DNA of 64,000 nt from an uncultured Actinomycetota bacterium (GCA_963728125.1 CAVSIZ010000003.1:11250-75249); one strand, 5' to 3'; shown: positions 23,767 through 61,702, counted from the first letter of the stretch. Numbers and translations: made by a program. The notes: a model not told the origin generated them from the letters alone.

Positions 23767-23817
23767 GTCGTTAGCCCTTATCAGTGGGGTCTGACAAGAA
23801 TCTTCGAGCGCTGCTCC

Positions 23818-23832
23818 TTATCCACAGGATAA
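23818..23832. promoter_or_regulatory. perfect palindrome TTATCC-aca-GGATAA inside an AT-rich leader (23767-23918)
   Basis: Seen directly. It lies about 90 nt upstream of the DUF222/HNH gene start, in the most AT-rich stretch of the window. Confidence 0.25.
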
Positions 23833-23918
23833 TCGTCAAGAATTGTTTTACTTGGTCCGTGCCAATTCTGCTGTGGACGAGCCCGGAATTGTCGGTGACG
23901 GGGTTTACGCTTTTCTTC

Positions 23919-25224
23919 ATGGCCACCGATCTGCGAACCGCGCTGCGCATGTACGAGGCCGGCGCGCGCGCGATCCTGGACGTGGACTGGTCGGTGGAGA
24001 TCGACGATGAGCTGCTCGACGGGGTACGCCGCATGGACCGGGTGGAGCGGCAGCTGCCGGCCGGGCGCAGCGCCGCCTTGGCGGAGGTGAAGGTCCGCGG
24101 GCTAGCGGAGCAGCACGGCTGCCGGTCGGATGCGGCGTTGCTGCGGCAGCTGCTGAACTGTTCGGCGGCGGCGGCGGGATCGTGGCTGTCGCAGGCGGAT
24201 GACCTCGTCCCTGGCCGGTCGTTGTCGACGGGCGAGTTGTTGCCGCCGCGCCACCCAGCGCTCGCGCAGGCGGTCGCCGTGGGGGAGGTGAGCGCTGAGC
24301 ACGTGCGGTTGATTCGGCACACGATGCGTCGCATCCCGAACACCATTGATCAGCCGACCCGGGACCAGGCGGAGAAGGACCTCGTGGAGCATGCCCGCAC
24401 TCTCGATCCCGATCAGCTCAGGCACGCGTGCGCGCGGCTGCTGATGTGCCTGGACCCGGACGGATCTCTGGGCTCCACCGACGAGGAGCGGCGGCGGCAG
24501 CGGGCGTTCACGATCGGCCGGCAGGATCGGCACGGCATGTACCCGGTGCACCGGCCTGCTCGACCCGGAGACCGGCGCGCTGCTGCGCGCGGCGTTGGAA
24601 CCGCTCGCCGGGCCCAGGCACACCGCGCAGGAACGCGACATGCGGACCGTGTCGCAGCGGATGCACGACGCCGTCCGCGACGCCGCCAAACTGATGCTGG
24701 CCTCCGGGGACCTGCCGTCCCAGGCCGGGGTGCCCGCGACGCTGTTCATCACCGCGAAGCTGGACGACCTCGAACGCGGGACGGGGCATGTAACCACCGC
24801 GCACGGCGGACTGCTCCCGATCCGCGACGTGCTCCGCCTCGCGGCGAACGCCCGGCTGGTGCCGGCGGTGTTCGACACCGACGGGGAACCGCTGTGGCTC
24901 GGCCGAAGCCAGCGCCTCGCGTCCAGACCCCAGCGCCACATCCTCACCGTCATGGATAAGGGCTGCGTCTACCCCGGCTGCGATGTGCCGGCGACCCGGT
25001 GTGAGGTGATGCACCTGCATGACTGGGTGAAGGGCGGTCCCACCAACATCGACAACCTCGCGTTGGGTTGCGACTACCACCATCACCGGTTCGGCGAATG
25101 GACACTGGAACGCCGTAATGGGCGGGTGTGGTGCATTCCGCCGATGTGGGTCGACCCCGCCAAACGACCGAGAATCAATTCCGTGTTCCACGACCCCGAA
25201 TTACCTATACCGCCGCCCGAGTAA
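23919..25224 (+). pseudogene. DUF222 / HNH endonuclease (REP13E12-like), single frameshift near 24549
   Basis: ORF 23784..24959 carries the DUF222 N-terminus up to GRQDRHGMYPV. ORF 24595..25224, in another frame, continues TGLLDPETGALLRAALEPLAG ... CVYPGCDVPATRCEVMHLHDW...NLALGCDYHH (HNH). Confidence 0.75.
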
Positions 25225-37942: not shown

Positions 37943-38944
37943 TCAGGGACGGCGCTTCGGGCTCACGGTCTTGGCGGCGTCGCGCTCGACCACCGGGTCG
38001 AGGATCTCGTCGATGCGCTTCAGCAGGTCGGCGTCCAGTTTCTTGCCGGCAGCGCCGGCGTTGTCGACGACTTGCTCCGGCCGGCTGGCGCCGATGATGG
38101 CCGCGGAGACGTTGTCGTTCTGCAGCACCCATGCGGTGGCGAGCTGAGCCATGGACAGGCCGGCATCGTCGGCGACCGGCTGCAGTCGCTGCACACGAGT
38201 GAGCACGTCGTCGTCGGTGAGGTAGCGACGAATCATGTTGGCGCCGCCCTTGTCGTCGGTCGCTCGCGACCCAGCGGGTGGCTGCTCACCCGGTCGGTAC
38301 TTCCCGGTGAGGATGCCCTGGGCGATGGGGGAGAACACGATCTGCCCGACACCGAGCTCCTCAGACGTCGGCACGACGCGGCTCTCGATGACGCGCCACA
38401 GCATCGAGTACTGCGGCTGGTTCGAGACCAGCGAGACACCGAGCTGCCGAGCGAGGTCCACGCCGGCACGGATCTGGTCCGCGGTCCACTCCGAGACACC
38501 GATGTACAGCGCCTTGCCGGCACGGACGACGTCGGCGAACGCCTGCATCGTCTCCTCGAGCGGCGTCTCGTTGTCGTAGCGATGCGCCTGGTACACGTCG
38601 ACGTACGACATCTGGAGCCGGCGCAGCGAGGCGTCGATTGATTCGAGGATGTGCTTGCGCGACAGGCCGCGGTCGTTCTTGCCCGGACCCATCGACCAGA
38701 AGACCTTGGTGAGGACCTCCAGACCCTCCCGGCGCTCGCCCTGCAGCGCGCGCCCGAGCACCTCCTCGGCGCGACCGCCGGCGTAGACGTCAGCGGTGTC
38801 GAACGTGGTGATGCCCGCGTCGAGTGCGGCGCGTACGCAATCTTGCGCAGCGTCCTCCTCGACCTGTGAGCCGTGGGTCAGCCAGTTGCCATATGCGATC
38901 TCGCTGACGATGAGCCCGCTGTCGCCGAGGTGTCGAAACTCCAT
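37943..38944 (-). CDS. aldo/keto reductase
   Basis: 333 aa. MEFRHLGDSGLIVSEIAYGNW, GITTFDTADVY and other AKR signatures. Confidence 0.85.
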   Translation of the reverse strand: MEFRHLGDSGLIVSEIAYGNWLTHGSQVEEDAAQDCVRAALDAGITTFDTADVYAGGRAEEVLGRALQGERREGLEVLTKVFWSMGPGKNDRGLSRKHILESIDASLRRLQMSYVDVYQAHRYDNETPLEETMQAFADVVRAGKALYIGVSEWTADQIRAGVDLARQLGVSLVSNQPQYSMLWRVIESRVVPTSEELGVGQIVFSPIAQGILTGKYRPGEQPPAGSRATDDKGGANMIRRYLTDDDVLTRVQRLQPVADDAGLSMAQLATAWVLQNDNVSAAIIGASRPEQVVDNAGAAGKKLDADLLKRIDEILDPVVERDAAKTVSPKRRP

Positions 38945-38975
38945 GCCTCAACCCTAGGTGCGCAGCGTCGATCCC

Positions 38976-39674
38976 TCAGATCGTGGCGCCGGGCTTCACC
39001 TGCGGCTTGGGAAGGCGCAGCCGACGCAACTGCATGCTGCGCAGCAGCGCGTACGACGTCGTGCCCTTGGCTTGCTCGTCGGGGAAGCGCTGCTCGACCG
39101 TCTTGCGCAGGCCGCGAGCGAGGAGGAACGAATCGACGATGACCACGGCGAGCAGCACCAGCCAGAGCAGGATGCCGATGCTGTAGACGACCTCGTTGCG
39201 TACGAACGTGGCGAGCAGGACGACGAGCGCGACCGGCAGGAAGAACTCTGCCGCGCTGCGTCGGGAGTCCACATAGTTGCGCGCCAACCGCCGGACCGGC
39301 CCACGATCACGAGCCGGCAGGTTCTTCTCTTCGCCCGTCAGCAGCGCCTGCCGCGAGGCCATCCGCTCCTGCCGGGCACGCTCTCGGGTGCGGCGGTACG
39401 CCTCCTTGCGATCCTTCGGTGCGCGGACAGCCTGGCGGCGCTGTTGCTCCGCGTCGCGACGCTTCGGGGTGGGCCGTCCCTTGCCGACCTCGGGGGTCTC
39501 CCCGACGTCCATCGGGGTCGCAGTCTCGGTGCTGCTCGAGCGCCGGCGGAGGAGGGGACGGATCACGCCATCAGGATAAGGGCCGGATCCGGGGCGCGGG
39601 CCCTCGCCGAGGCTGCGACGGCGCCCTAGGGTGGGGGACCGGGATTGATTCCTGCGCCTGAACCACGGCCACAC
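38976..39674 (-). CDS. DUF3043 domain-containing membrane protein (Rv2206-like)
   Basis: KGRPTPKRRDAEQQRR ... LPARDRGPVRRLARNYVDSRR plus two TM helices. GTG 39674 (VWPWFRRR) chosen as start; uncertain. Confidence 0.75.
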   Translation of the reverse strand: MWPWFRRRNQSRSPTLGRRRSLGEGPRPGSGPYPDGVIRPLLRRRSSSTETATPMDVGETPEVGKGRPTPKRRDAEQQRRQAVRAPKDRKEAYRRTRERARQERMASRQALLTGEEKNLPARDRGPVRRLARNYVDSRRSAAEFFLPVALVVLLATFVRNEVVYSIGILLWLVLLAVVIVDSFLLARGLRKTVEQRFPDEQAKGTTSYALLRSMQLRRLRLPKPQVKPGATI

Positions 39675-39698
39675 GTATGAAGGAGGCGGCCGCAGCCC

Positions 39699-40553
39699 AT
39701 GGGTGTCATGAAGCGGATGTCCATGATCTTCCGTAGCAAGGCGAACCGCGTCCTCGACAAGGCCGAGGATCCGCGCGAGACGCTCGACTACTCCTATCAA
39801 AAGCAGCTAGAGCTGCTCCAAAAGGTTCGCCGCGGCGTCGCCGACGTCGCCACCTCCCGCAAGCGCATCGAGCTGCAACTGCAGCAACTGCAGGCGCAGT
39901 CCGACAAGCTCGAGGATCAGGGTCGCAAAGCGCTGGCGGTCGGCCGTGAGGACCTTGCACGCGAAGCGCTGACGCGTCGCTCCGGTGTCCAGCAGCAGAT
40001 GCAGGACCTGCAGACGCAGTACGTCTCCCTGCAAGGCGAGGAGGAGAAGCTGACGCTCGCCTCGCAGCGCCTCCAGGCCAAGGTGGACGCCTTCCGCACC
40101 CGCAAGGAGACGATCAAGGCCACGTACACCGCCGCCGAGGCGCAGACCCGCATCGGCGAGGCGTTCTCCGGCATCTCCGAGGAGATGAGCGACGTCGGGC
40201 TGGCGATGCAACGGGCGGAGGAGAAGACCCAGACGCTGCAGGCACGCGCAGGTGCGATCGACGAACTGCTCGCCTCCGGGGCGCTCGACGACCCGACCGG
40301 CATGGCGAAGGACGACATCACTGCCGAGCTCGACCGGCTGTCGTCCACGCAGGACGTCGAGCTGGAGCTGCGCCGCCTGAAGGGCGAGCTGCCCTCCGGC
40401 GCATCCGCGGCTGAGCTCGAAGCGGGCACGAGTGTCACCACGCCGAGGGAGGCAACGGCGACCCCCATCCCGGCGGAACCTATGGAGCCGGCCGGCCACC
40501 GCGGCAGCCCGAGCGGCAGGGAGATGCAACGTGATCGTCCGCATTCTCGGTGA
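39699..40553 (+). CDS. pspA: PspA/IM30 family protein
   Basis: FRSKANRVLDKAEDPRETLDYSYQKQLELLQKV plus a long coiled coil. GAAGGAGG lies 12 nt upstream of the ATG. Confidence 0.85.
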   Translation: MGVMKRMSMIFRSKANRVLDKAEDPRETLDYSYQKQLELLQKVRRGVADVATSRKRIELQLQQLQAQSDKLEDQGRKALAVGREDLAREALTRRSGVQQQMQDLQTQYVSLQGEEEKLTLASQRLQAKVDAFRTRKETIKATYTAAEAQTRIGEAFSGISEEMSDVGLAMQRAEEKTQTLQARAGAIDELLASGALDDPTGMAKDDITAELDRLSSTQDVELELRRLKGELPSGASAAELEAGTSVTTPREATATPIPAEPMEPAGHRGSPSGREMQRDRPHSR

Positions 40554-40809
40554 GGGCCAGTTCGAGGTCGGCGACGACGGCGTGGCCGACCTCAACCGAC
40601 TCGACCAGGACCTCCAACGGGCGCTCGACGGCGACGACGACGCGGCATTCCGGTCGGCGCTGTCTGCGCTCTTAGCGAAGGTGCGCGAGTCGGGCATTCC
40701 GCTGGCGCTTGACGCGTTGGAACCATCAGACCTGATCCTTCCGGCTGAGGACGCCCACGTCGACGAGGTACGCGACATGCTCGGCAACGAGGGCCTGATC
40801 CCTGGGTAA
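40531..40809 (+). CDS. small acidic PspA-associated protein (PspAA-like)
   Basis: GTG 40531, VIVRILGEGQFEVGDDGVADLNRLDQDLQRALDGDD. Overlaps the pspA 3' end by 23 nt. Confidence 0.6.
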   Translation: MIVRILGEGQFEVGDDGVADLNRLDQDLQRALDGDDDAAFRSALSALLAKVRESGIPLALDALEPSDLILPAEDAHVDEVRDMLGNEGLIPG

Positions 40810-40863
40810 TTCCGTGGTTCACCACAGCTGACTGAGCAACGAAAGGAAGCTCGCGACACCGCG

Positions 40864-41784
40864 ATGGCCCACTCTCGCTACGCCCCCGACCGCGGCTTGT
40901 CGGCCCGTATGGGCCTCACCATGTTCCTGCTCGGGTTGCTCTACATCGTCTTGTTCGTCGTCATCGGCTGGGCGCTCGGCGGTACCAGCAGCGCCTGGGT
41001 CATTGCGCTCGTGGTGGCTGCGGCCGCCCTGTGGGCGCAGTGGTTCTTCTCTGATCGGCTGGCGCTGTACTCCATGCGCGGGCGGATCGTCACCCCGCAG
41101 GAAGCACCACAGCTGCACGCGATCGTCGACCGGCTGTGTGCGCTGGCCGACATGCCGAAGCCGCAGGTCGCGATCGCCGACGTCGACATCCCCAACGCCT
41201 TCGCCACCGGACGGTCGCCGAAGCGCGCAGTCGTCTGCGCCACCACCGGGCTCATGCGCCGTCTCGACGACCGTGAGCTCGAAGGCGTCCTCTCTCACGA
41301 GCTGTCGCACGTCGCCCACCGTGACGTCACGGTCATGACCATCGCGTCGTTCGTCGGTGTGCTTGCCGGTTTCCTCACCCGGATCGGGATCTTCTCGGGC
41401 ATGGGTGGCGGCCGCGACCGCGACAGCAATGCGGCAGTCGTCCTCCTGGTCGTGACGCTGGTCAGCGTGCTCGTCTATGCCGTCAGCTTCCTGCTCATCC
41501 GCGTGCTGTCCCGCTACCGCGAGCTGTCCGCAGACCGCACCGGCGCCCTGCTCACCGGGCAACCGTCGGCACTGGCCAGCGCGCTGGTCAAGATCAACGG
41601 TGACATGGGCCGCATCCCCACCCGCGACCTGCGGCAGGCCGAGGCCTTCAACGCGTTCTTCTTCGCCCCCGCCATTGCCAAGGGAACCAGCCTCTCCTCG
41701 CTGTTCTCGACGCACCCGCCGCTGGAGCAGCGGCTCGCCCAGCTGAACCGCATCTCGGCGCAGCTCGGGCGCGCGGCCGGCTAG
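40864..41784 (+). CDS. htpX: zinc metalloprotease HtpX (M48)
   Basis: HELSHVAHRD zinc motif, four TM segments and a STHPPLEQRL C-terminal motif. Confidence 0.9.
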   Translation: MAHSRYAPDRGLSARMGLTMFLLGLLYIVLFVVIGWALGGTSSAWVIALVVAAAALWAQWFFSDRLALYSMRGRIVTPQEAPQLHAIVDRLCALADMPKPQVAIADVDIPNAFATGRSPKRAVVCATTGLMRRLDDRELEGVLSHELSHVAHRDVTVMTIASFVGVLAGFLTRIGIFSGMGGGRDRDSNAAVVLLVVTLVSVLVYAVSFLLIRVLSRYRELSADRTGALLTGQPSALASALVKINGDMGRIPTRDLRQAEAFNAFFFAPAIAKGTSLSSLFSTHPPLEQRLAQLNRISAQLGRAAG

Positions 41785-47089: not shown

Positions 47090-47229
47090 AACCAGTGGTC
47101 GCGTACTCGGCCTGAGTGGCGCAACGTGTCACTATGGACGGGAATGCAGCGCCGGGGTGACCCGGTTGACTGTGCAGAACCCGATGTCCGTAGGACCAAA
47201 TGTCCGCACCACCCCATAGGAGCTCGTCC

Positions 47230-47610
47230 ATGACGGTCAGTGGCAGTACCGAAACCACGACCAGCCCGACGTCGACTCCGGCGCCGAGCGGGATCATCCT
47301 CACCGACGTAGCAGCTGGCAAGGTCAAGAGCCTGCTCGAGCAGGAAGGCCGCGACGACCTGTCGCTGCGCGTTGCGGTCCAGCCGGGCGGCTGCTCCGGC
47401 CTGCGCTATCAGCTCTTCTTCGACGAGCGCTCGCTCGACGGCGACGTCGTCAAGGACTTCAGCGGCGTCTCCGTCGTCACCGACCGGATGAGCGCCCCCT
47501 ACCTCGGCGGCGCCACGATCGACTTCGTCGACACGATCGAGAAGCAGGGCTTCACCATCGACAACCCCAACGCCTCCGGCTCGTGCGCCTGCGGAGACTC
47601 GTTCCACTAA
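47230..47610 (+). CDS. erpA: iron-sulfur cluster insertion protein (HesB/IscA family)
   Basis: RVAVQPGGCSGLRYQLFFD and the C-terminal CACGDSF. TAGGAG lies 7 nt upstream of ATG 47230. Confidence 0.9.
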   Translation: MTVSGSTETTTSPTSTPAPSGIILTDVAAGKVKSLLEQEGRDDLSLRVAVQPGGCSGLRYQLFFDERSLDGDVVKDFSGVSVVTDRMSAPYLGGATIDFVDTIEKQGFTIDNPNASGSCACGDSFH

Positions 47611-47619
47611 CACTTTTGT

Positions 47620-47635
47620 GCCGCTGACCAGCGGC
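47620..47635. terminator. short GC hairpin between convergent erpA and ATPase genes
   Basis: GCCGCTG-ac-CAGCGGC. The effective stem is 6 bp. No U-tract. Confidence 0.35.
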
Positions 47636-47636
47636 G

Positions 47637-48710
47637 TCATCCGTTAGGCGCGCACTCGCTGATCGCCAGGCGCATGTGCCGCTCGCTGATCGCAGGAGCA
47701 GCGTCGTCGCAGGCCCGAGCCAGGGCCGTGTGAGCCACGTACATCACCCGCCGGCGCAGGTCACCCGTTCTCCCGCGCAGGTAGTGGCGCATCAGCAGGC
47801 GCATCGCTACTGGAGTGACCAGCTCAGTCAGCGGCTGATCGGTGAGATCGGCGACGCGCTGCGCCAGGATCCGGGCCAGGCCCGTCACATCCGGCACGGG
47901 TGGCACGTGTACGGAGCTCTCGATGAAGCCCTCCGCGGATCGATACCCCGGCTGGGTGACGTAGTGGTCGTGCACCGCGATCACCGCTGCCGCGGGTAGC
48001 TCCTCGGCGATCAGCCGAACCACCCGACCGAAGAATCCGTCGACCAGTCGCGCCGAGTCGGCGGGAGCCGATACCTGCAGCCACTTGTCGGTGTCGTCGA
48101 ACACCAGCACGGGCAGCAGGTCCCGTGCCGCGATGAGCTCGAGGATGCGCCGCGCCTGCTCGACCACCTCCGCTCCCGAGCGAGGTGAGGATGGCGAGCT
48201 CGCCGAGTCGAGTTCCGCGGCGAGCTCCAGCCGTACGCCCATCCAGCTCGGAGCCACGCTGACCTTGGTCGGACGGCGCCGATCCGCGGGCAAGGTGGGA
48301 GTCGTCCGGCGCAGGATCCGGCGAGCGTCGTCCTCGTCGGCCGGCTGCGCGTACGCGATGTACCGAGCGACGGTGCGCACCAGATGCGCGGCGAAGGCGA
48401 CCGGAGAGGTCGCCACCTCCTCGTCCTCCAGCGATACCGGAATCGGCAGCGGGGCGAGGTCCTCGACCAGCGGTCCCAGCACGTACGACACGACACTCGA
48501 CTTGCCCGACCCGCTGCTGCCGATCAGCGCGACTTGCTCACCGCGCCGCAATGCCGCGTCGAGGGTCTGCTCGCAGGTCGCCCCGCCGGTCAGCTCGTCG
48601 AACGGCACGTGGAAGCGGAACAGTTCTGCCTGCCGCGGCGCCGGGTCGAACACGTGCTCATCGCGAAGGCGTAGCAAGGTGTCAGCGGTGTCGGTGGCGT
48701 CCGCGGTCAC
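47637..48710 (-). CDS. ORC/Cdc6-like AAA+ P-loop ATPase (no wHTH), distal gene of a 3-ORF operon
   Basis: Walker A LIGSSGSGKSS, Walker B LPVLVFDDTDKW, and a lid-like GDLRRRVMYVAHTALARA...ISERHMRLAI resembling Cdc6 GDAR..DLL...V..HV. GTG 48710 overlaps the upstream stop as GTGA. Confidence 0.7.
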   Translation of the reverse strand: MTADATDTADTLLRLRDEHVFDPAPRQAELFRFHVPFDELTGGATCEQTLDAALRRGEQVALIGSSGSGKSSVVSYVLGPLVEDLAPLPIPVSLEDEEVATSPVAFAAHLVRTVARYIAYAQPADEDDARRILRRTTPTLPADRRRPTKVSVAPSWMGVRLELAAELDSASSPSSPRSGAEVVEQARRILELIAARDLLPVLVFDDTDKWLQVSAPADSARLVDGFFGRVVRLIAEELPAAAVIAVHDHYVTQPGYRSAEGFIESSVHVPPVPDVTGLARILAQRVADLTDQPLTELVTPVAMRLLMRHYLRGRTGDLRRRVMYVAHTALARACDDAAPAISERHMRLAISECAPNG

Positions 48711-49000
48711 GGTCGCACGGTAACCGCCGTGTAGACCGTCCGTGGTCGGCCGGGACCGTTGCGCACCGTCGTCGTCTCGACGAGCCCCACATCGAGCAGC
48801 TCACGGAGCAGCTGGGTGGCACGCGACCGAGTCCAGCCGTGCCGGGCGAGGAGGCCGGGATCGGACGCGCTGGCCGGGCCAGAGGCCTCGAGGTCCGCGA
48901 CGAGCTCGGCGGCAGCGGGGGAGACGGCTGACAGCCGCCGATCGCGTTCTCGGGCGCTGCCCGCCAGCTCCTCGGTAGCGGCCGGGCTCGGCCAGCGCAA
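48707..49000 (-). CDS. winged-helix DNA-binding module, probably the displaced C-terminus of the upstream ATPase
   Basis: AAAELVADLEASGPASASDPGLLARHGWTRSRATQLLRELLDVGLVETTTVRNGPGRPRTVYTAV fits an H1-H2-H3-wing pattern. The only in-frame start is a TTG at 49000, just after a TGA. Confidence 0.55.
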   Translation of the reverse strand: MRWPSPAATEELAGSARERDRRLSAVSPAAAELVADLEASGPASASDPGLLARHGWTRSRATQLLRELLDVGLVETTTVRNGPGRPRTVYTAVTVRP

Positions 49001-49664
49001 CTCGGGTGGCGCTCAGCAACGCCCGCGGATTACCCGCGGCGAGGTCGACGATCGTCGCCAGCGCGTCGTCGGCGAGTTGCCCGTTGGGTACGCGAGCGCG
49101 GACGAGCGCGCGCGCCTGATCGTCCGGCAGGTCAGGCAGCACCACTTCGACGTCGAAGAACGCGTCCGCCGGAGGGCGCAGCAGGGTGGCTCGGTCGCGG
49201 TCGGTGCACGTCACTGCCCAGCGGACAGGCAGCTGCCACAGCTCGTCGCGCAGCGTGCCGAACAGGCCGTACGCCGCGCCGGGCACGGCGTTGTCGAGCA
49301 ACGCCACCGCCGGCAGCACGTCCGCGGGGGTAGAGAGGAGGCGTTGCAGCGGCCAGTCGTCTGTTCTGTCGAGAGCAGTGCGGCGCCGCGTGCCGTCGCC
49401 GTCCATGAGTCGCGCCGTCACGACGTCGACGAGCTGCTGCGTCGACAGCGCCGTACCAGCGTCGATCCAGAGCGAAGCAATCCCTTGCTCCCGCAGCTTC
49501 CTCGCTACTTGGCGCAGCACCGTGGTCCTACCTGACCCGCGCTCGCCGACCAGCAGCACGTTGAGATCCGTGCTGACGGCGTTCATTACACGGCTCATGG
49601 CTTCGTCGCGGCCCACCACAAGTGCAGCGTCGAGCTGGTTGTCGAGGAGCGGTCGACCACTCAT
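48801..49664 (-). CDS. ORC/Cdc6-like AAA+ ATPase, proximal gene; the last ~60 codons of the ORF as given look out of frame
   Basis: ATG 49664 (MSGRPLLDNQLDAALVVGRDEAM). Walker A LLVGERGSGRTTVL, Walker B AVALLDNAV, lid AAGNPRALLSATRVAL. After ...ALAEP the frame becomes Arg/Pro-rich junk while the wHTH continues in the +1 frame. Confidence 0.65.
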   Translation of the reverse strand: MSGRPLLDNQLDAALVVGRDEAMSRVMNAVSTDLNVLLVGERGSGRTTVLRQVARKLREQGIASLWIDAGTALSTQQLVDVVTARLMDGDGTRRRTALDRTDDWPLQRLLSTPADVLPAVALLDNAVPGAAYGLFGTLRDELWQLPVRWAVTCTDRDRATLLRPPADAFFDVEVVLPDLPDDQARALVRARVPNGQLADDALATIVDLAAGNPRALLSATRVALAEPGRYRGAGGQRPRTRSAAVSRLPRCRRARRGPRGLWPGQRVRSRPPRPARLDSVACHPAAP

Positions 49665-49754
49665 GTTCAGCACAAAACTCACTATACGTTCACAACGTTT
49701 CGTGAGAAAGCAGACGGCGCTGTAGCGCGAGGATCGCCCAGTACCCTGCACCGC

Positions 49755-50742
49755 GTGCGCATCGCCGTCACTGGGTCCATCGCGACAGACCATCTGATGA
49801 CATTTCCGGGACGGTTCGCCGACTCGTTCGTCACCGACAAGCTGCACTCTGTGTCGCTGTCGTTCCTCGTCGATGACCTGCACGTGCGGCGCGGCGGCGT
49901 TGCCGCGAACATCGCCTTCGGACTCGGGTGCCTGGGCCTGCGGCCTGTACTTGTCGGTGCCGTCGGCCCGGATTTCGCAGACTATCGCTCCTGGTTGGAG
50001 CGGCATGGCGTCGACTGCGACTCCGTCCGAGTGTCGACCGTGGCCCAGACCGCGCGGTTCGTCTGCACGACCGATATCGATCACAACCAGATCGCCTCTT
50101 TCTATCCGGGTGCCATGACCGAGGACCGCGAGCTCGAGCTGTGGCCGGTGGCCGAACGCCTCGGCGACCTCGACCTGGTCCTCATCGGCGCTACCGATCC
50201 GGCCGCGATGACCCGACACACGCAGGAGTGCCTCCAGCGCGGCTACCGATTCGTAGCCGATCCGTCGCAGCAGCTGGCGCGGATGGACGGTCCGGAGATC
50301 CGGCTGCTGGTCGAGGGCGCGGCGTACCTGTTCACCAACGAGTACGAAGCAGCCCTGACCGAACAGAAGACCGGCTGGACCTCGCAGCAGATCCTCGATC
50401 GTGTCGACGTGCGGGTGACCACACTCGGCAAGAAGGGCGCCATCGTCGAGCGGTCCGGGCAGCCTGTCGGTCCAGGTGGCCTGCCCGCGCGAGGAAGGCA
50501 AGGTCGATCCGACCGGCGTGGGTGACGCGTTCCGCGCTGGGTTCCTCGCCGGCATCGGGTGGGGCCTGTCGGACGAACGCTGCGCACAGCTCGGCGCGAT
50601 GCTCGCGACGTTCGTCATCGAGACGGTCGGCACCCAGGAGTACGACCTCGGGCATGGGCAGTTTCTCGACCGCTTCACCGAGGCGTACGGCGCTGAGGCT
50701 GCTGCCGATATCACCGCTCATCTGCGGCTGATCCCCGCCTGA
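49755..50742 (+). pseudogene. PfkB-family carbohydrate/adenosine kinase (Rv2202c adoK-like), frameshift near 50469
   Basis: ORF 49755..50525 reads well to ...GAIVERSGQPV. ORF 50476..50742, in another frame, continues VQVACPREEGKVDPTGVGDAFRAGFLAG. Confidence 0.75.
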
Positions 50743-50765: not shown

Positions 50766-51455
50766 GTGCGCAACGAGCCACCGCCGAGCCGCTGGATCTT
50801 CCCACCGCCGAGCGCAGCCGACGCGGAGGGGATCGTCGCCCTGGGCGCGGATCTGCTGCCTGGAACGTTGCTGGCTGCCTACCGCTCCGGCCTTTTTCCG
50901 ATGCCGATCGGGCGACGGTACCCAATGGCCTGGTGGTCACCGGATCCGCGGGGGATCTTGCCGCTGGAGTCGTTGCGCATCAGCCGGTCGCTGCGAGCAT
51001 CGACGCGCCGATTCGAGGTGACCGTCGATGCCGCCTTTGCTCGAGTGGTGCTCGGCTGCAGCGACCCGGGTCGCCCGCACGGGTGGATCAGCCGCGACAT
51101 CCGAGACGCCTACGTGGTGCTGCACCGGCTCGGCTGGGCGCACAGCGTCGAGGCGTGGGCGCCGGACGGGACATTGGCCGGCGGCCTGTACGGCGTGGCC
51201 ATCGGCGGACTGTTCGCCGGCGAATCAATGTTCTCGGCGGTGCGCGACGCGTCAAAGGTGGCGCTGGTGCACCTGGTTGGCTTGCTCCGTGCGGATCCAC
51301 GACCGCACCGGTTGCTGGACGTCCAGTGGGCGACCCCGCACATGCAATCGCTCGGCGCCCGTGCGATCCCACGCGAGGAGTACCTGGCCCTGCTCGCCCG
51401 TGCTCTCGAGCTGCCGCTTCCCGAGGCGTTCGCTCAGCGCAGCGAGCTCAGCTGA
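50766..51455 (+). CDS. aat: leucyl/phenylalanyl-tRNA--protein transferase
   Basis: LLAAYRSGLFPM...WWSPDPRGILP...GGLYGVAIGGLFAGESMF. Confidence 0.85.
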   Translation: MRNEPPPSRWIFPPPSAADAEGIVALGADLLPGTLLAAYRSGLFPMPIGRRYPMAWWSPDPRGILPLESLRISRSLRASTRRFEVTVDAAFARVVLGCSDPGRPHGWISRDIRDAYVVLHRLGWAHSVEAWAPDGTLAGGLYGVAIGGLFAGESMFSAVRDASKVALVHLVGLLRADPRPHRLLDVQWATPHMQSLGARAIPREEYLALLARALELPLPEAFAQRSELS

Positions 51456-55596: not shown

Positions 55597-56000
55597 GGAA
55601 CGAAGGCATCATCTTCGCCATCATCACGATCTTCTTCACGATCGTGACGCCCATCTACTGGCTCCTGTCGTACGAACCGGCGGGCACCGTCGCCCTGGCG
55701 CTGACCGCCGTCATGTCCGCGCTGATCGCGTTCTACGTGCTGTTCACGGCGCGGCGGCTCCCGGGACCGCGTCCGGAAGATCGCACCGACGCTGAGATCG
55801 AGGAGGGCGCGGGGGAGCTCGGCTTCTACAGCCCCCACAGCTGGTGGCCGCTGTTCCTCGCCGCGTCTGCCGCGGTGACCGCACTGGGGCTGGTGTTCGG
55901 GTGGTGGCTGGTCGGCCTCGGGCTCATCTTCGTGTTGCTGAGTCTCGGCGGTTTCCTCTTCGAGTACTACCGCGGCGCGGCGGCTCGCCAGTACCGCTGA
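55593..56000 (+). CDS. ctaF: cytochrome c oxidase subunit 4
   Basis: 135 aa four-helix membrane protein immediately after ctaD (4-nt overlap). Actinobacterial CtaF pattern. Confidence 0.85.
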
Positions 56001-61020: not shown

Positions 61021-61057
61021 GGGCCGTCCTTTGGCAGGATTATCGAAGGGGTAGTGC

Positions 61058-61702
61058 TCACTTGAGGATGTAGATCGTCGCGAACAAACCGATCCATACG
61101 ACATCGACGAAGTGCCAGTAGTACGACACCACGATCGCGGAGATCGCCTGCTCATGGGTGAAGCGCCTCGCGGCGTAGGTCCGGCCGAGCACGAACAAGA
61201 AGGCGATGAGCCCGCCGGTGACGTGCAGACCATGGAATCCGGTGGTCAGGTAGAAGACGGAGCCGTACGCATTGGATGAGATCGACAGGCCCTCATCGAC
61301 CAGTTGGACGTACTCGTACACCTGAGCGACGACGAACACGGTGCCCATGACGAACGTGATGACGAACCAGATGCGTAGCCGGCGCACGTCGCCGCGCTCA
61401 GCGGCGAAGACCCCGAGCTGACAGGTGACCGACGACAGCACCAAGATCAGTGTGTTCACGCTGGAGTACGGGATGTTGAGCATCTCCGTGCTCTCCAGCC
61501 AGACCTCCGGTCCCTGGACCGACCGGATCGTGAAGTACATCGCGAACAGGCCCGCGAAGAACATCAGCTCCGAGGCCAGCCACACAATCGTCCCAACGCT
61601 GACCATGCTCGGCCGATCGGCCTGACCAGCAACGCGAGGCCGCTCGACGGCGGATGCTGTCGCCACGCGGTCATTATTGCGGTCATCGGGTGCAAAGGAC
61701 AT
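61058..61702 (-). CDS. ctaE: cytochrome c oxidase subunit III
   Basis: ORF 61058..62182 trimmed to ATG 61702. Has [15 protein letters not shown] and YWHFVDVVW motifs. Confidence 0.9.

Follow-up and report, generated by a model that had tools for sequence, protein, structure and literature searches.

A pair of ORC/Cdc6-type AAA+ paralogs under a palindromic promoter-operator in Actinomycetota: a candidate conflict or DNA-surveillance module

Introduction

Archaeal Orc1/Cdc6 initiators (structures 2v1u and 2qby, including the Orc1-1/Orc1-3 heterodimer on origin DNA) are the best structural matches of the proteins encoded by two adjacent genes, here called A and B, of an uncultured Actinomycetota bacterium. 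These genes are located between erpA and pfkB, and the locus was analyzed on the minus strand of a 64,000-nt stretch of DNA (GCA_963728125.1 CAVSIZ010000003.1:11250-75249), the whole of which is referred to as the window. Like the archaeal initiators, A and B have an AAA+ base in which strand 2 is followed by a helical insert, and a helical lid whose sensor-2 motif resembles GDAR (GNPR in A and [DN]LR in B); A also has the C-terminal winged helix. As in the archaea, there are two paralogs that seem to work jointly, and the gene has a matching palindromic box next to it. In contrast to the archaeal proteins, A and B are bacterial and occur in Actinomycetota only, A is compact (~320 amino acids, aa) and often degenerate, and B has no winged helix. 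Furthermore, there is no MCM or replication context around A-B, and the DNA box coincides with the promoter of A itself.

Some Orc1/Cdc6 homologs are non-initiator, signal-responsive DNA-binding regulators. These include Orc1-2 of Saccharolobus, which acts in the DNA-damage response (PMC6061795, PMC9738581), and Orf8 of the pleolipovirus SNJ2, which is present on a mobile element (PMC10123103). They are comparable to A-B in having an Orc1/Cdc6 fold together with DNA binding that, for A-B, is putatively regulatory. Unlike the A-B paralog pair, Orc1-2 and Orf8 are archaeal single proteins with DNA damage and phosphorylation as triggers, and their likeness to A-B as seen here is one of fold.

ORC/Cdc6 ATPases are also part of bacteriophage exclusion (BREX) systems, in which BrxC/PglY combines such an ATPase with a winged helix-turn-helix (wHTH) and BrxD is a stand-alone ORC/Cdc6 ATPase (PMC12839542). 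A-B likewise consists of one winged-helix ORC/Cdc6-type ATPase and one stand-alone ATPase, and lacks an obvious nuclease. Streptomyces is the genus in which type 2 BREX (Pgl) was originally described. In contrast to BREX, A-B has no PglZ, PglX or methyltransferase partners, and BrxC is a protein of 1200-1300 aa with further domains. The PADLOC models of BrxC, BrxD and PglY gave no match to the pair at E <=1, and the BrxF model matched at the P-loop only (E 0.015-0.05).

STAND NTPases (NACHT, NB-ARC, Avs; nSTAND) have an NTPase, a helical domain and a winged helix in the same order as A, which gives weak matches to the nSTAND5, ORC-CDC6-like and NACHT profiles (nSTAND5 at 29.4 bits, below the 34-bit cut-off). 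In addition, we take the Walker B motif of B (hhhhDD.D.W) to resemble the STAND form. Unlike STAND NTPases, A-B has no C-terminal sensor repeats and mostly no N-terminal effector, and two proteins are involved, of which B lacks the winged helix. Finally, type II toxin-antitoxin operons resemble the locus in having a DNA-binding first gene, an operator over the promoter and a 4-bp gene overlap, and in being small cassettes scattered over unrelated loci; one plasmid copy of A-B even lies beside true toxin-antitoxin pairs. This likeness is one of gene layout; in contrast to toxin-antitoxin pairs, A and B are both large AAA+ NTPases and paralogs of each other.

The A-B family matches no named system in the libraries searched (PADLOC, NCBIfam and Pfam), and its parts belong to the known world of ORC and STAND NTPases. 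The locus very likely consists of two co-inherited ORC-type paralogs, an intact B and a degenerate DNA-binding A, with an operator over a probably leaderless promoter, that together form an inserted accessory cassette. In terms of function, an uncharacterized conflict or DNA-surveillance module is the reading favored here, with moderate confidence.

Structure and Conservation of the Two Proteins

On the minus strand, the promoter-operator is followed by gene A and gene B, and the locus has the following genes:

48707-49673, minus strand: gene A, ORC/STAND-like NTPase with a helical lid and a C-terminal winged helix-turn-helix, ~318-321 aa if read through
47637-48710, minus strand: gene B, ORC/Cdc6-like AAA+ ATPase of 357 aa without a winged helix (open reading frame, ORF, and translation)
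47200-47610, plus strand: erpA (Fe-S_biosyn), flanking gene
49755-50742, plus strand: pfkB, adoK-like PfkB kinase, flanking gene

The motifs quoted in the original prediction, which was made from the sequence of the window, are all found in the translations (GERGSGRTT, VALLDN and AAGNPRALL in A; GSSGSGKSS, VLVFDDTDKW and GDLRRR...ISERHMRLAI in B). The overlap of the A stop and the GTG start of B as GTGA at 48707-48710 is present, and the flanks that had been named erpA and an adoK-like kinase were identified as Fe-S_biosyn and PfkB.

AAA_16 is the sole Pfam family that scores above its cut-off; nSTAND5, ORC-CDC6-like, NACHT and MarR/TrmB/Cdc6_C remain below theirs. The orc1/cdc6 model TIGR02928 reached 16 bits versus a cut-off of 181, and PF24389 (ORC-CDC6-like) 21 bits versus a cut-off of 27. 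A sequence-profile search of PDB chains with A and B returned only P-loop matches (RecA, midasin, ABC transporters) and was uninformative; therefore, a fold search was needed. AlphaFold models were built on family alignments, A being modeled via the 92%-identical P0121, and had predicted local distance difference test (pLDDT) scores of 93.5 for A (P0121) and 88.5 for B. The top Foldseek match of both is ORC1 of A. pernix bound to DNA (2v1u_A), with an E-value of 3.9e-10 for A and 1.8e-6 for B. For A, this match is followed by the Orc1-1/Orc1-3 heterodimer of S. solfataricus (2qby_A, E 1.3e-9), Cdc6 of P. aerophilum (1fnn) and eukaryotic ORC/Cdc6 subunits, with NLRs, Avs3, RuvB and RFC further down the list. 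For B, human ORC4 and A. pernix ORC2 come next, and HslU and TnsC (7rzy, 7plh) are ranked lower. These results bear out the earlier assignment of both proteins to ORC/Cdc6-type AAA+ folds, with template modeling (TM) scores to Orc1/Cdc6 structures of only ~0.45-0.55, partly from differing domain orientation.

The features that define ORC/Cdc6 proteins, such as the helical insert and the sensor-2 lid, have been listed (PMC12839542). A has the full Orc1/Cdc6 order in a compact form, with an AAA+ base in which strand 2 is followed by the helical insert (in the model, helices 81-94 and 111-117, flanked by strands 70-74 and 126-130), a lid and a winged helix (model residues 255-319, with weak matches to the MarR, TrmB and Cdc6_C profiles). 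The insert after strand 2 is far larger in B, with five helices between strands 85-89 and 199-204, and B ends with the lid, without a winged helix. The models agree in this respect with the winged helix that had been assigned to the first ATPase and not to the second. Profile-profile alignment of A and B with hhalign gave a probability of 98% and an E-value of 2e-13; the 215 aligned columns extend from the Walker A motif to sensor 2. The alignment shares an FGR motif after Walker B as well as the sensor-2 motif (GNPR in A, [DN]LR in B), and these similarities identify A and B as paralogs.

Conservation of the active sites, tabulated over 71 sequences, differs between the two proteins. In B, the Walker A (GxSGxGKSS) and Walker B (hhhhDD[TS]DxW) motifs are kept across the family: the Walker A residue Lys70, Asp206, Asp208, Trp210 and the sensor-2 residue Arg319 are invariant, and Asp205 is present in 69 of the 71 sequences. 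In A, the Walker B Asp and the sensor-2 Arg220 of GNPR are invariant, but the Walker A Lys is present in 53/71 sequences, with Arg in 13 and other residues in the remainder, and the residue after the Walker B Asp is Glu in only 21/71. In the lineage of the window, the Walker A Lys of A is replaced by Arg, and the Walker B Asp is followed by Asn rather than Glu. On the basis of this difference in active-site conservation, B looks like a working ATPase, and A looks like a DNA-binding subunit that would bind nucleotide at most. In ORC, degenerate and active subunits share composite sites, an arrangement that A and B recall.

Two relatives of the window were used for comparison, the contig L001 (98.6% identical over 17 kb) and a second relative, L005 (96% identity). 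The ratio of non-synonymous to synonymous substitution rates (dN/dS) of B is 0.07-0.085 versus the relatives, indicating strong purifying selection. For A (window 48707-49664), the dN/dS is 0.55 versus L005 and 0.26 versus L001; compared with B and all neighboring genes (0-0.09), A is higher in dN/dS and lower in dS, and the counts are small (24 non-synonymous vs 17 synonymous changes). Many members of the family are named 'energy-coupling factor transporter ATP-binding protein EcfA2' or ABC transporter ATPase in JGI, and others 'AAA family ATPase'. The EcfA2/ABC names are wrong and seem to go back to the P-loop alone, and they are contradicted by the results obtained with the modeled folds.

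Distribution and Genomic Context

A single-sequence search with B returned 138 clusters at 90% identity, and among 1.84 billion representatives, 308 clusters were found at E <=1e-30 and 1033 at E <=1e-3, nearly all of 340-355 aa. Relatives of A numbered 97 by single sequence and 476 by profile, all of 317-370 aa. With its ~300-500 sequence clusters, the family merits its own family definition in annotation. A scan of one genome per species gave 87 loci in 185,579 species, and every phylum-named locus belongs to Actinomycetota. In all, the A-B pair recurs in ~80 genomes of this phylum. The pair is present in the classes Actinomycetes, Acidimicrobiia and Thermoleophilia, and cultured carriers include Nakamurella lactea, Piscicoccus intestinalis and Mobilicoccus pelagius. 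One metagenome bin with a B relative is labeled Eisenbacteria and may be mis-binned. No paper on the family or on the genes of the plasmid pFiD188, described below, was found in the literature.

A is located directly upstream of B in ~74 of the 78 loci that have upstream DNA, with a 4-bp NTGA overlap in about two-thirds of the loci, and the pairwise-distance matrices of A and B correlate (r = 0.88). The pair is inherited as a unit and co-evolves. All-against-all clustering of flanking ORFs gave no conserved third gene; the largest cluster covers 14/85 loci and reflects lineage-specific synteny. The context differs by lineage and includes erpA/pfkB (window, L001, L005), acetyl-CoA synthetase and a sigma factor (N. 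lactea), LarA and malic enzyme, and DUF222 and GCV_T. In a Phycicoccus bin, the pair is surrounded by resolvases, a transposase, a YhcG nuclease and a type ISP restriction fragment.

Among 72,556 plasmids, one carries the pair, namely the linear plasmid pFiD188 of Rhodococcus fascians (L169, NC_021080.1), in which it is located at 41-43 kb of 199 kb, beside toxin-antitoxin genes. At 38666-41319 of pFiD188, A-B is preceded by a Phd/YefM-RelE/ParE pair and by a two-gene unit whose last member encodes a RES-family NAD+ phosphorylase, and an Lsr2-family gene and a DEAD/DEAH helicase are found downstream of the pair.

The Promoter-Operator of Gene A

Directly upstream of gene A, the following elements are present:

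49678-49706, minus strand: 29-bp palindromic operator CTCACGAAACGTTGTGAACGTATAGTGAG, the window version of the family consensus CTaACaaaaCTTACTGTAAGTATtGTnAG
49681-49708, minus strand: sigma-70-type promoter with -35 TTCTCA, a 16-nt spacer and -10 TATAGT (consensus promoter scan)

The small palindromes that had been pointed out upstream of the locus turn out to be one odd 29-bp palindrome (CTCAC..ACGTT GTG AACGT..GTGAG) lying over the promoter. The -35 element overlaps the left operator arm, and the TAnnnT -10 element overlaps the right arm. The promoter scan gave one site in 2.6 kb versus 0.1 expected, and its -10 ends at 49681, 7 nt before the GTG at 49673. A palindrome is observed at this place upstream of A in nearly all loci, with 10-14 of 14 positions paired in 53 of 70 loci and usually beating shuffles, and in most of the ~70 loci it ends within ~10 nt of the start codon. 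The operator consensus CTaACaaaaCTTACTGTAAGTATtGTnAG was derived from 51 loci, and this operator is also found ahead of A on pFiD188 and in the variant with a TIR fusion described below. This conserved 29-bp promoter-operator is an observation new to this analysis.

Other loci share the geometry, with the TAnnnT -10 element 6-7 nt before an ATG or GTG. A -10 element this near to the start codon is the geometry of leaderless transcripts in Actinobacteria, and the A-B mRNA is probably leaderless. Based on the leaderless promoter geometry, GTG 49673 is probably the start of A rather than the alternative ATG 49664.

The operator arms vary by lineage while their symmetry is kept, as in CTGAC/GTCAG, CGCAC/GTGCG and TTCAC/GTGAA, and Thermoleophilia have a different perfect palindrome, GCAAAAGTAGC-T-GCTACTTTTGC. 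The arm variants track the recognition helix of the winged helix (GWTRPRVVQV, VTRPRLVALF, GWSRQRAA, GWTSSRASQV), a correlation that is confounded with phylogeny. This covariation would be supportive of the pairing of A with the operator. The palindrome over the promoter of A, together with the winged helix in A, implies autorepression, and the simplest reading is that A would bind, as a dimer or higher oligomer, over its own core promoter.

In some Acidimicrobiia loci (L069:8779 and L070), a region ~100-210 bp upstream of A has the operator-promoter doubled in tandem; behind the upstream copy of L069 there is no more than a 3-codon ORF. The region upstream of A had also been described as one of only two AT-rich stretches, which did not hold: it is one of six 40-bp stretches with <=45% guanine-cytosine (GC) content in the window. 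The other five, in a window of 68% GC, are located at 23794-23880, 25170-25210, 39784-39828, 55599-55647 and 61036-61078.

A cognate AT-rich palindrome beside a gene with an Orc1/Cdc6 fold and a winged helix is also what would be seen if the pair were a replication-initiation or maintenance module of a mobile element and the palindrome its origin-recognition box, comparable to archaeal orc1 genes beside origins. The copy on the linear pFiD188 amid toxin-antitoxin maintenance genes fits this explanation. However, the palindrome coincides exactly with the -35 and -10 elements, as an operator would, and the chromosomal copies are 2.1-kb cassettes amid housekeeping genes, with no helicase, primase, integrase or partition genes conserved nearby. 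Moreover, the pair is present in only 1/72,556 plasmids and in no phage, and its position on pFiD188 is not central, which makes a replication role very unlikely.

The position of the operator over the promoter of A itself is equally compatible with a regulator. The pair would then be an ATP-dependent transcription regulator of host physiology, for example of DNA damage or stress, like archaeal Orc1-2 or SNJ2 Orf8, and A, modulated by B, would recognize palindromic boxes in its own promoter and a few others. This is the main rival to the conflict reading, and we consider it possible but tentative. There is a precedent in the Orc1/Cdc6 homologs that act as signal-activated regulators (PMC6061795, PMC9738581, PMC10123103). 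In 16 loci of the Nakamurella/Mycobacteriales clade, the pair is located just upstream of the endonuclease IV gene (nfo, AP_endonuc_2), and second operator-like sites are found upstream of nfo at L021:11940, L022:5369, L023:11882, L026:5387 and L041:11986, ~0.9 kb downstream of B. The nfo promoter at those loci reads TGTCGG-N10-TACCCT, which presumably resembles the mycobacterial RecA-independent DNA-damage promoter. The mostly housekeeping neighbors of the pair and the strong purifying selection on B also argue for a regulator. On the other hand, the extra sites occur in a sub-clade only and lie 55-85 bp upstream of the nfo promoter, not over it, and they were therefore not accepted as proof of a regulon. 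The operator is unique in the window, with no second copy anywhere in its 64 kb. For a core regulator, it would also be unusual to be so patchily distributed (87/185,579 species), to lie next to toxin-antitoxin pairs on a plasmid and to have B fused to TIR or protease domains.

Indications for a Possible Role in Genetic Conflict

Rare variants of B are linked to effector domains. In P0267 (577 aa), full-length B is fused to a CAP12/Pycsar-type TIR domain (PF10137, E 1e-21), and the C-terminal tail of the protein is hydrophobic and looks by eye like a transmembrane helix. P0267 is present on three contigs from at least two samples, and its locus has A upstream with a 4-bp overlap, the standard operator and a type I methylase next door. 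In P0240/P0359 (585 aa), a Trypsin_2 peptidase is fused to B, with no A upstream. Furthermore, in two Geodermatophilaceae bins (L010:9430-9948 and L011), the gene of a 172-aa HNH endonuclease is located 50 bp upstream of B, again with no A; the HNH gene is followed by a Shine-Dalgarno-like GGAGG before B.

The Trypsin_2-B gene at L172:8001-9758 (GCA_035533475.1) is accompanied by a divergent HTH_17 gene and located in a GCV_T/FUR/BTAD/Laminin_G_3 neighborhood. L165 and L166 have an ordinary A-B pair in similar neighborhoods, which suggests that Trypsin_2-B is an allelic replacement in a variable spot.

Modularity as seen around B is typical of NTPase-centered conflict systems. This modularity, the scattered occurrence of the pair and its plasmid copy next to toxin-antitoxin genes favor a conflict role, to which the rare fusions of B with a TIR domain or a protease lend indirect support. 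According to this model, A would bind the 29-bp operator through its winged helix, as a dimer or oligomer, and repress the leaderless A-B transcript. B would pair with A through the AAA+ interface, in the manner of archaeal Orc1-1/Orc1-3 or eukaryotic Orc1/Orc4, and serve as a nucleotide-driven switch. The cassette would serve in genetic conflict (defense against phages or plasmids, or addiction), with a trigger that shifts the A-B pair to another nucleotide or oligomer state. In the rare variants, this switch would be wired to a TIR or protease effector, and the common effector-less form would act by binding or occluding DNA or by de-repression.

Several results weigh against a conflict role. 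Effector-fused variants make up only 2 of the top 150 B clusters, and the common form has no recognizable effector, nor is one conserved nearby. The 104 immediate neighbors from 54 loci, scanned with Pfam and PADLOC, are mostly metabolic or housekeeping genes. About 6 of the 104 are defense- or toxin-antitoxin-like (ResIII helicases, type I methylases, HipA), so that the signal for defense-island enrichment among them is weak, with no clear island. No relatives of the pair were found in phage genomes, viral contigs or the BFVD fold library. The best matches in PADLOC-DB v2 (2023), namely PDC-M54A, mad3, mad8 and PtuA, had E-values of 1.6e-4 to 1e-3, and among the NCBIfam antiphage models (2026), DS8_antiphage reached 19.8 bits versus a cut-off of 790; in both libraries, the matches were confined to 25-60 residues at the P-loop. 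The PADLOC, NCBIfam and Pfam scans are in line with the original prediction that no named system matches, and it was also correct in that the window cassette has no effector, transposase or integrase. Lastly, the comparison with flanking genes, given below, points to an old insertion in this lineage and to a resident, normal chromosomal gene pair.

A more specific form of the conflict reading is that of a bacterial ORC-like heteromer, in which a degenerate, DNA-reading A and an active B would assemble on the cognate box and on foreign or damaged DNA, protecting or signaling without an enzymatic effector. This is a rather doubtful proposal. If true, it would represent an Actinomycetota-specific, origin-recognition-style immune or surveillance machine with nucleotide-gated DNA occupancy as its output.

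The conflict reading may add an Actinomycetota-specific module to the known conflict systems, in which an NTPase pair acts without a nuclease, NADase or pore. If functional, the pair would be a compact two-protein system (~320 + 350 aa) with a defined 29-bp DNA site that is easily tested, the TIR and protease fusion variants providing a built-in read-out, and it would show how ORC/Cdc6-type switches are used outside replication in bacteria.

The Split Reading Frame of Gene A

Gene A is interrupted in the window by a single base:

48985-48989, minus strand: one extra base within a C-run of the coding strand, disrupting gene A in the window alone (seen when the window is aligned with both L001 and L005)

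Three translationally coupled ORFs had been described for the locus. The DNA alignment with L001 and L005 gives two genes, one of them frameshifted. In both relatives, gene A is intact and encodes one 318-aa protein with the ATPase, lid and winged helix. The three-gene locus was therefore rejected, as 'ATPase 1' and 'wHTH' are one gene A. In the window, the 'ATPase 1' frame starts at ATG 49664 and stops at 48801, and the 'wHTH' frame is open from 49012 to 48707, with ~200 nt of overlap in different frames. Near 48987, the window reads GCCGAGCCCGG, where L001 reads GCCGA-CCCGG and L005 GCCGAG-CCGG, and this one extra base splits gene A.

A second private 1-bp insertion of the window, missing in L001 and L005, is located at ~50466 inside pfkB, 1.5 kb from gene A, and splits pfkB into the frames 49755-50525 and 50476-50742. 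L001 has a private extra base of its own (L001:5478), matching window position 51234 in the plus-strand ORF 50766-51455; no gene is called there in L001. Private single-base indels scattered in conserved genes have the look that is typical of consensus errors in metagenome assemblies. The pfkB split is probably such an assembly error in a window consensus with scattered single-base indels. Given the private pfkB insertion and the private indel of L001, the frameshift in A is likely an assembly artefact rather than a sign of a true pseudogene, and the cassette of the window is probably intact in the organism. All three private indels occur in a ...CCG(A/G)... context and might go back to systematic miscalling of bases, a methylation motif being one possible cause.

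Alternatively, the frameshift is real and the cassette is decaying in this genome, so that a truncated ATPase, possibly a stand-alone winged-helix peptide, and B are made. The extra base stands in the window sequence as given, the dN/dS of A is raised in this lineage (0.55 versus L005), and a split or frameshifted A or B is also found in a few other loci (L017, L045, L080, L167). However, B is under strong purifying selection, A is unbroken in both close relatives, and the other indels, in pfkB of the window and elsewhere in L001, follow the pattern typical of metagenome consensus errors. Decay is hence an unlikely, though possible, explanation, and the artefact is preferred.

The Insertion and Its Borders

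The original prediction had proposed a lineage-specific insertion into the conserved erpA-adoK synteny. Eighty metagenome loci encoding PfkB 66-74% identical to that of the relative were fetched, and 58 of them also have erpA upstream in the same orientation. The insertion reading holds, as A-B is missing from the erpA-pfkB interval in all 58 of these more distant relatives (58/58). The insertion is common to the window, L001 and L005, and the erpA-pfkB gap in the window is 2144 bp, of which only 26 + 90 bp are non-coding. The cassette has the GC content (70%) and the GC content at third codon positions (GC3) of its flanks, and the dS of A and B matches that of neighboring genes. Recent horizontal transfer in this lineage was rejected, since GC, GC3 and dS are equal to those of the flanks.

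The borders of the cassette contain the following features:

47614-47621, plus strand: left 8-mer TTTTGTGC, judged a chance match
49670-49677, plus strand: right 8-mer GCACAAAA, overlapping the probable start codon of A just downstream of the -10 and not kept in L005
47620-47635, no strand assigned: hairpin GCCGCTGACCAGCGGC in the 26-bp gap between the convergent erpA and B stops

The 8-mers had been taken as an inverted repeat improbable by chance. Both are indeed present, once each in the window, but the improbability was not upheld: the chance of an inverted repeat of at least 8 bp between the borders is 0.03 in shuffles and 0.06 in same-geometry windows elsewhere in the window. L005 has no 8-mer repeat, its longest border inverted repeat being 6 bp, and in 70 other loci the border inverted repeats are 6-8 bp, as expected by chance. 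No flanking direct repeat was found at the cassette borders, and no tRNA or Rfam family at or near the insertion site. The 8-mers were rejected as element termini: such a repeat is expected by chance, L005 lacks it, the borders of other loci have no better repeats, and there is no target-site duplication.

These findings also bear on a possible origin of the pair as a transposon relic or helper, in which A and B would be target-selecting ATPases of the TniB/TnsC/IstB type that have lost their transposase, with the 8-mers as termini. The lower-ranked TnsC matches of the B model (7rzy, 7plh) and the resolvase and transposase genes that flank L004 are consistent with such an origin. In contrast, there is no adjacent transposase in the window or in most loci, and no TniB or IstB profile matches were obtained. 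Together with the chance-level, non-conserved repeats and the missing target-site duplication, this largely refutes transposition here and leaves it scarcely credible.

A scan of the locus for terminators gave no canonical site, and the GCCGCTGACCAGCGGC hairpin may be a shared erpA/B terminator without a T-tract.

In the distant relatives, the erpA-pfkB gap is 75-232 bp in 35/58 loci and 449-2776 bp, filled with other genes, in the remaining ones. The content of the interval varies independently of the A-B cassette, with ~40% of the distant relatives holding other genes there (L087, L108, L122, L130, L138, L145, L151, L156-L158). These genes mostly encode opposite-strand secreted or membrane proteins with an N-terminal hydrophobic segment and Ala/Pro/Gly-rich regions, and one thiolase-like gene and one alpha/beta-hydrolase-like gene are also among them.

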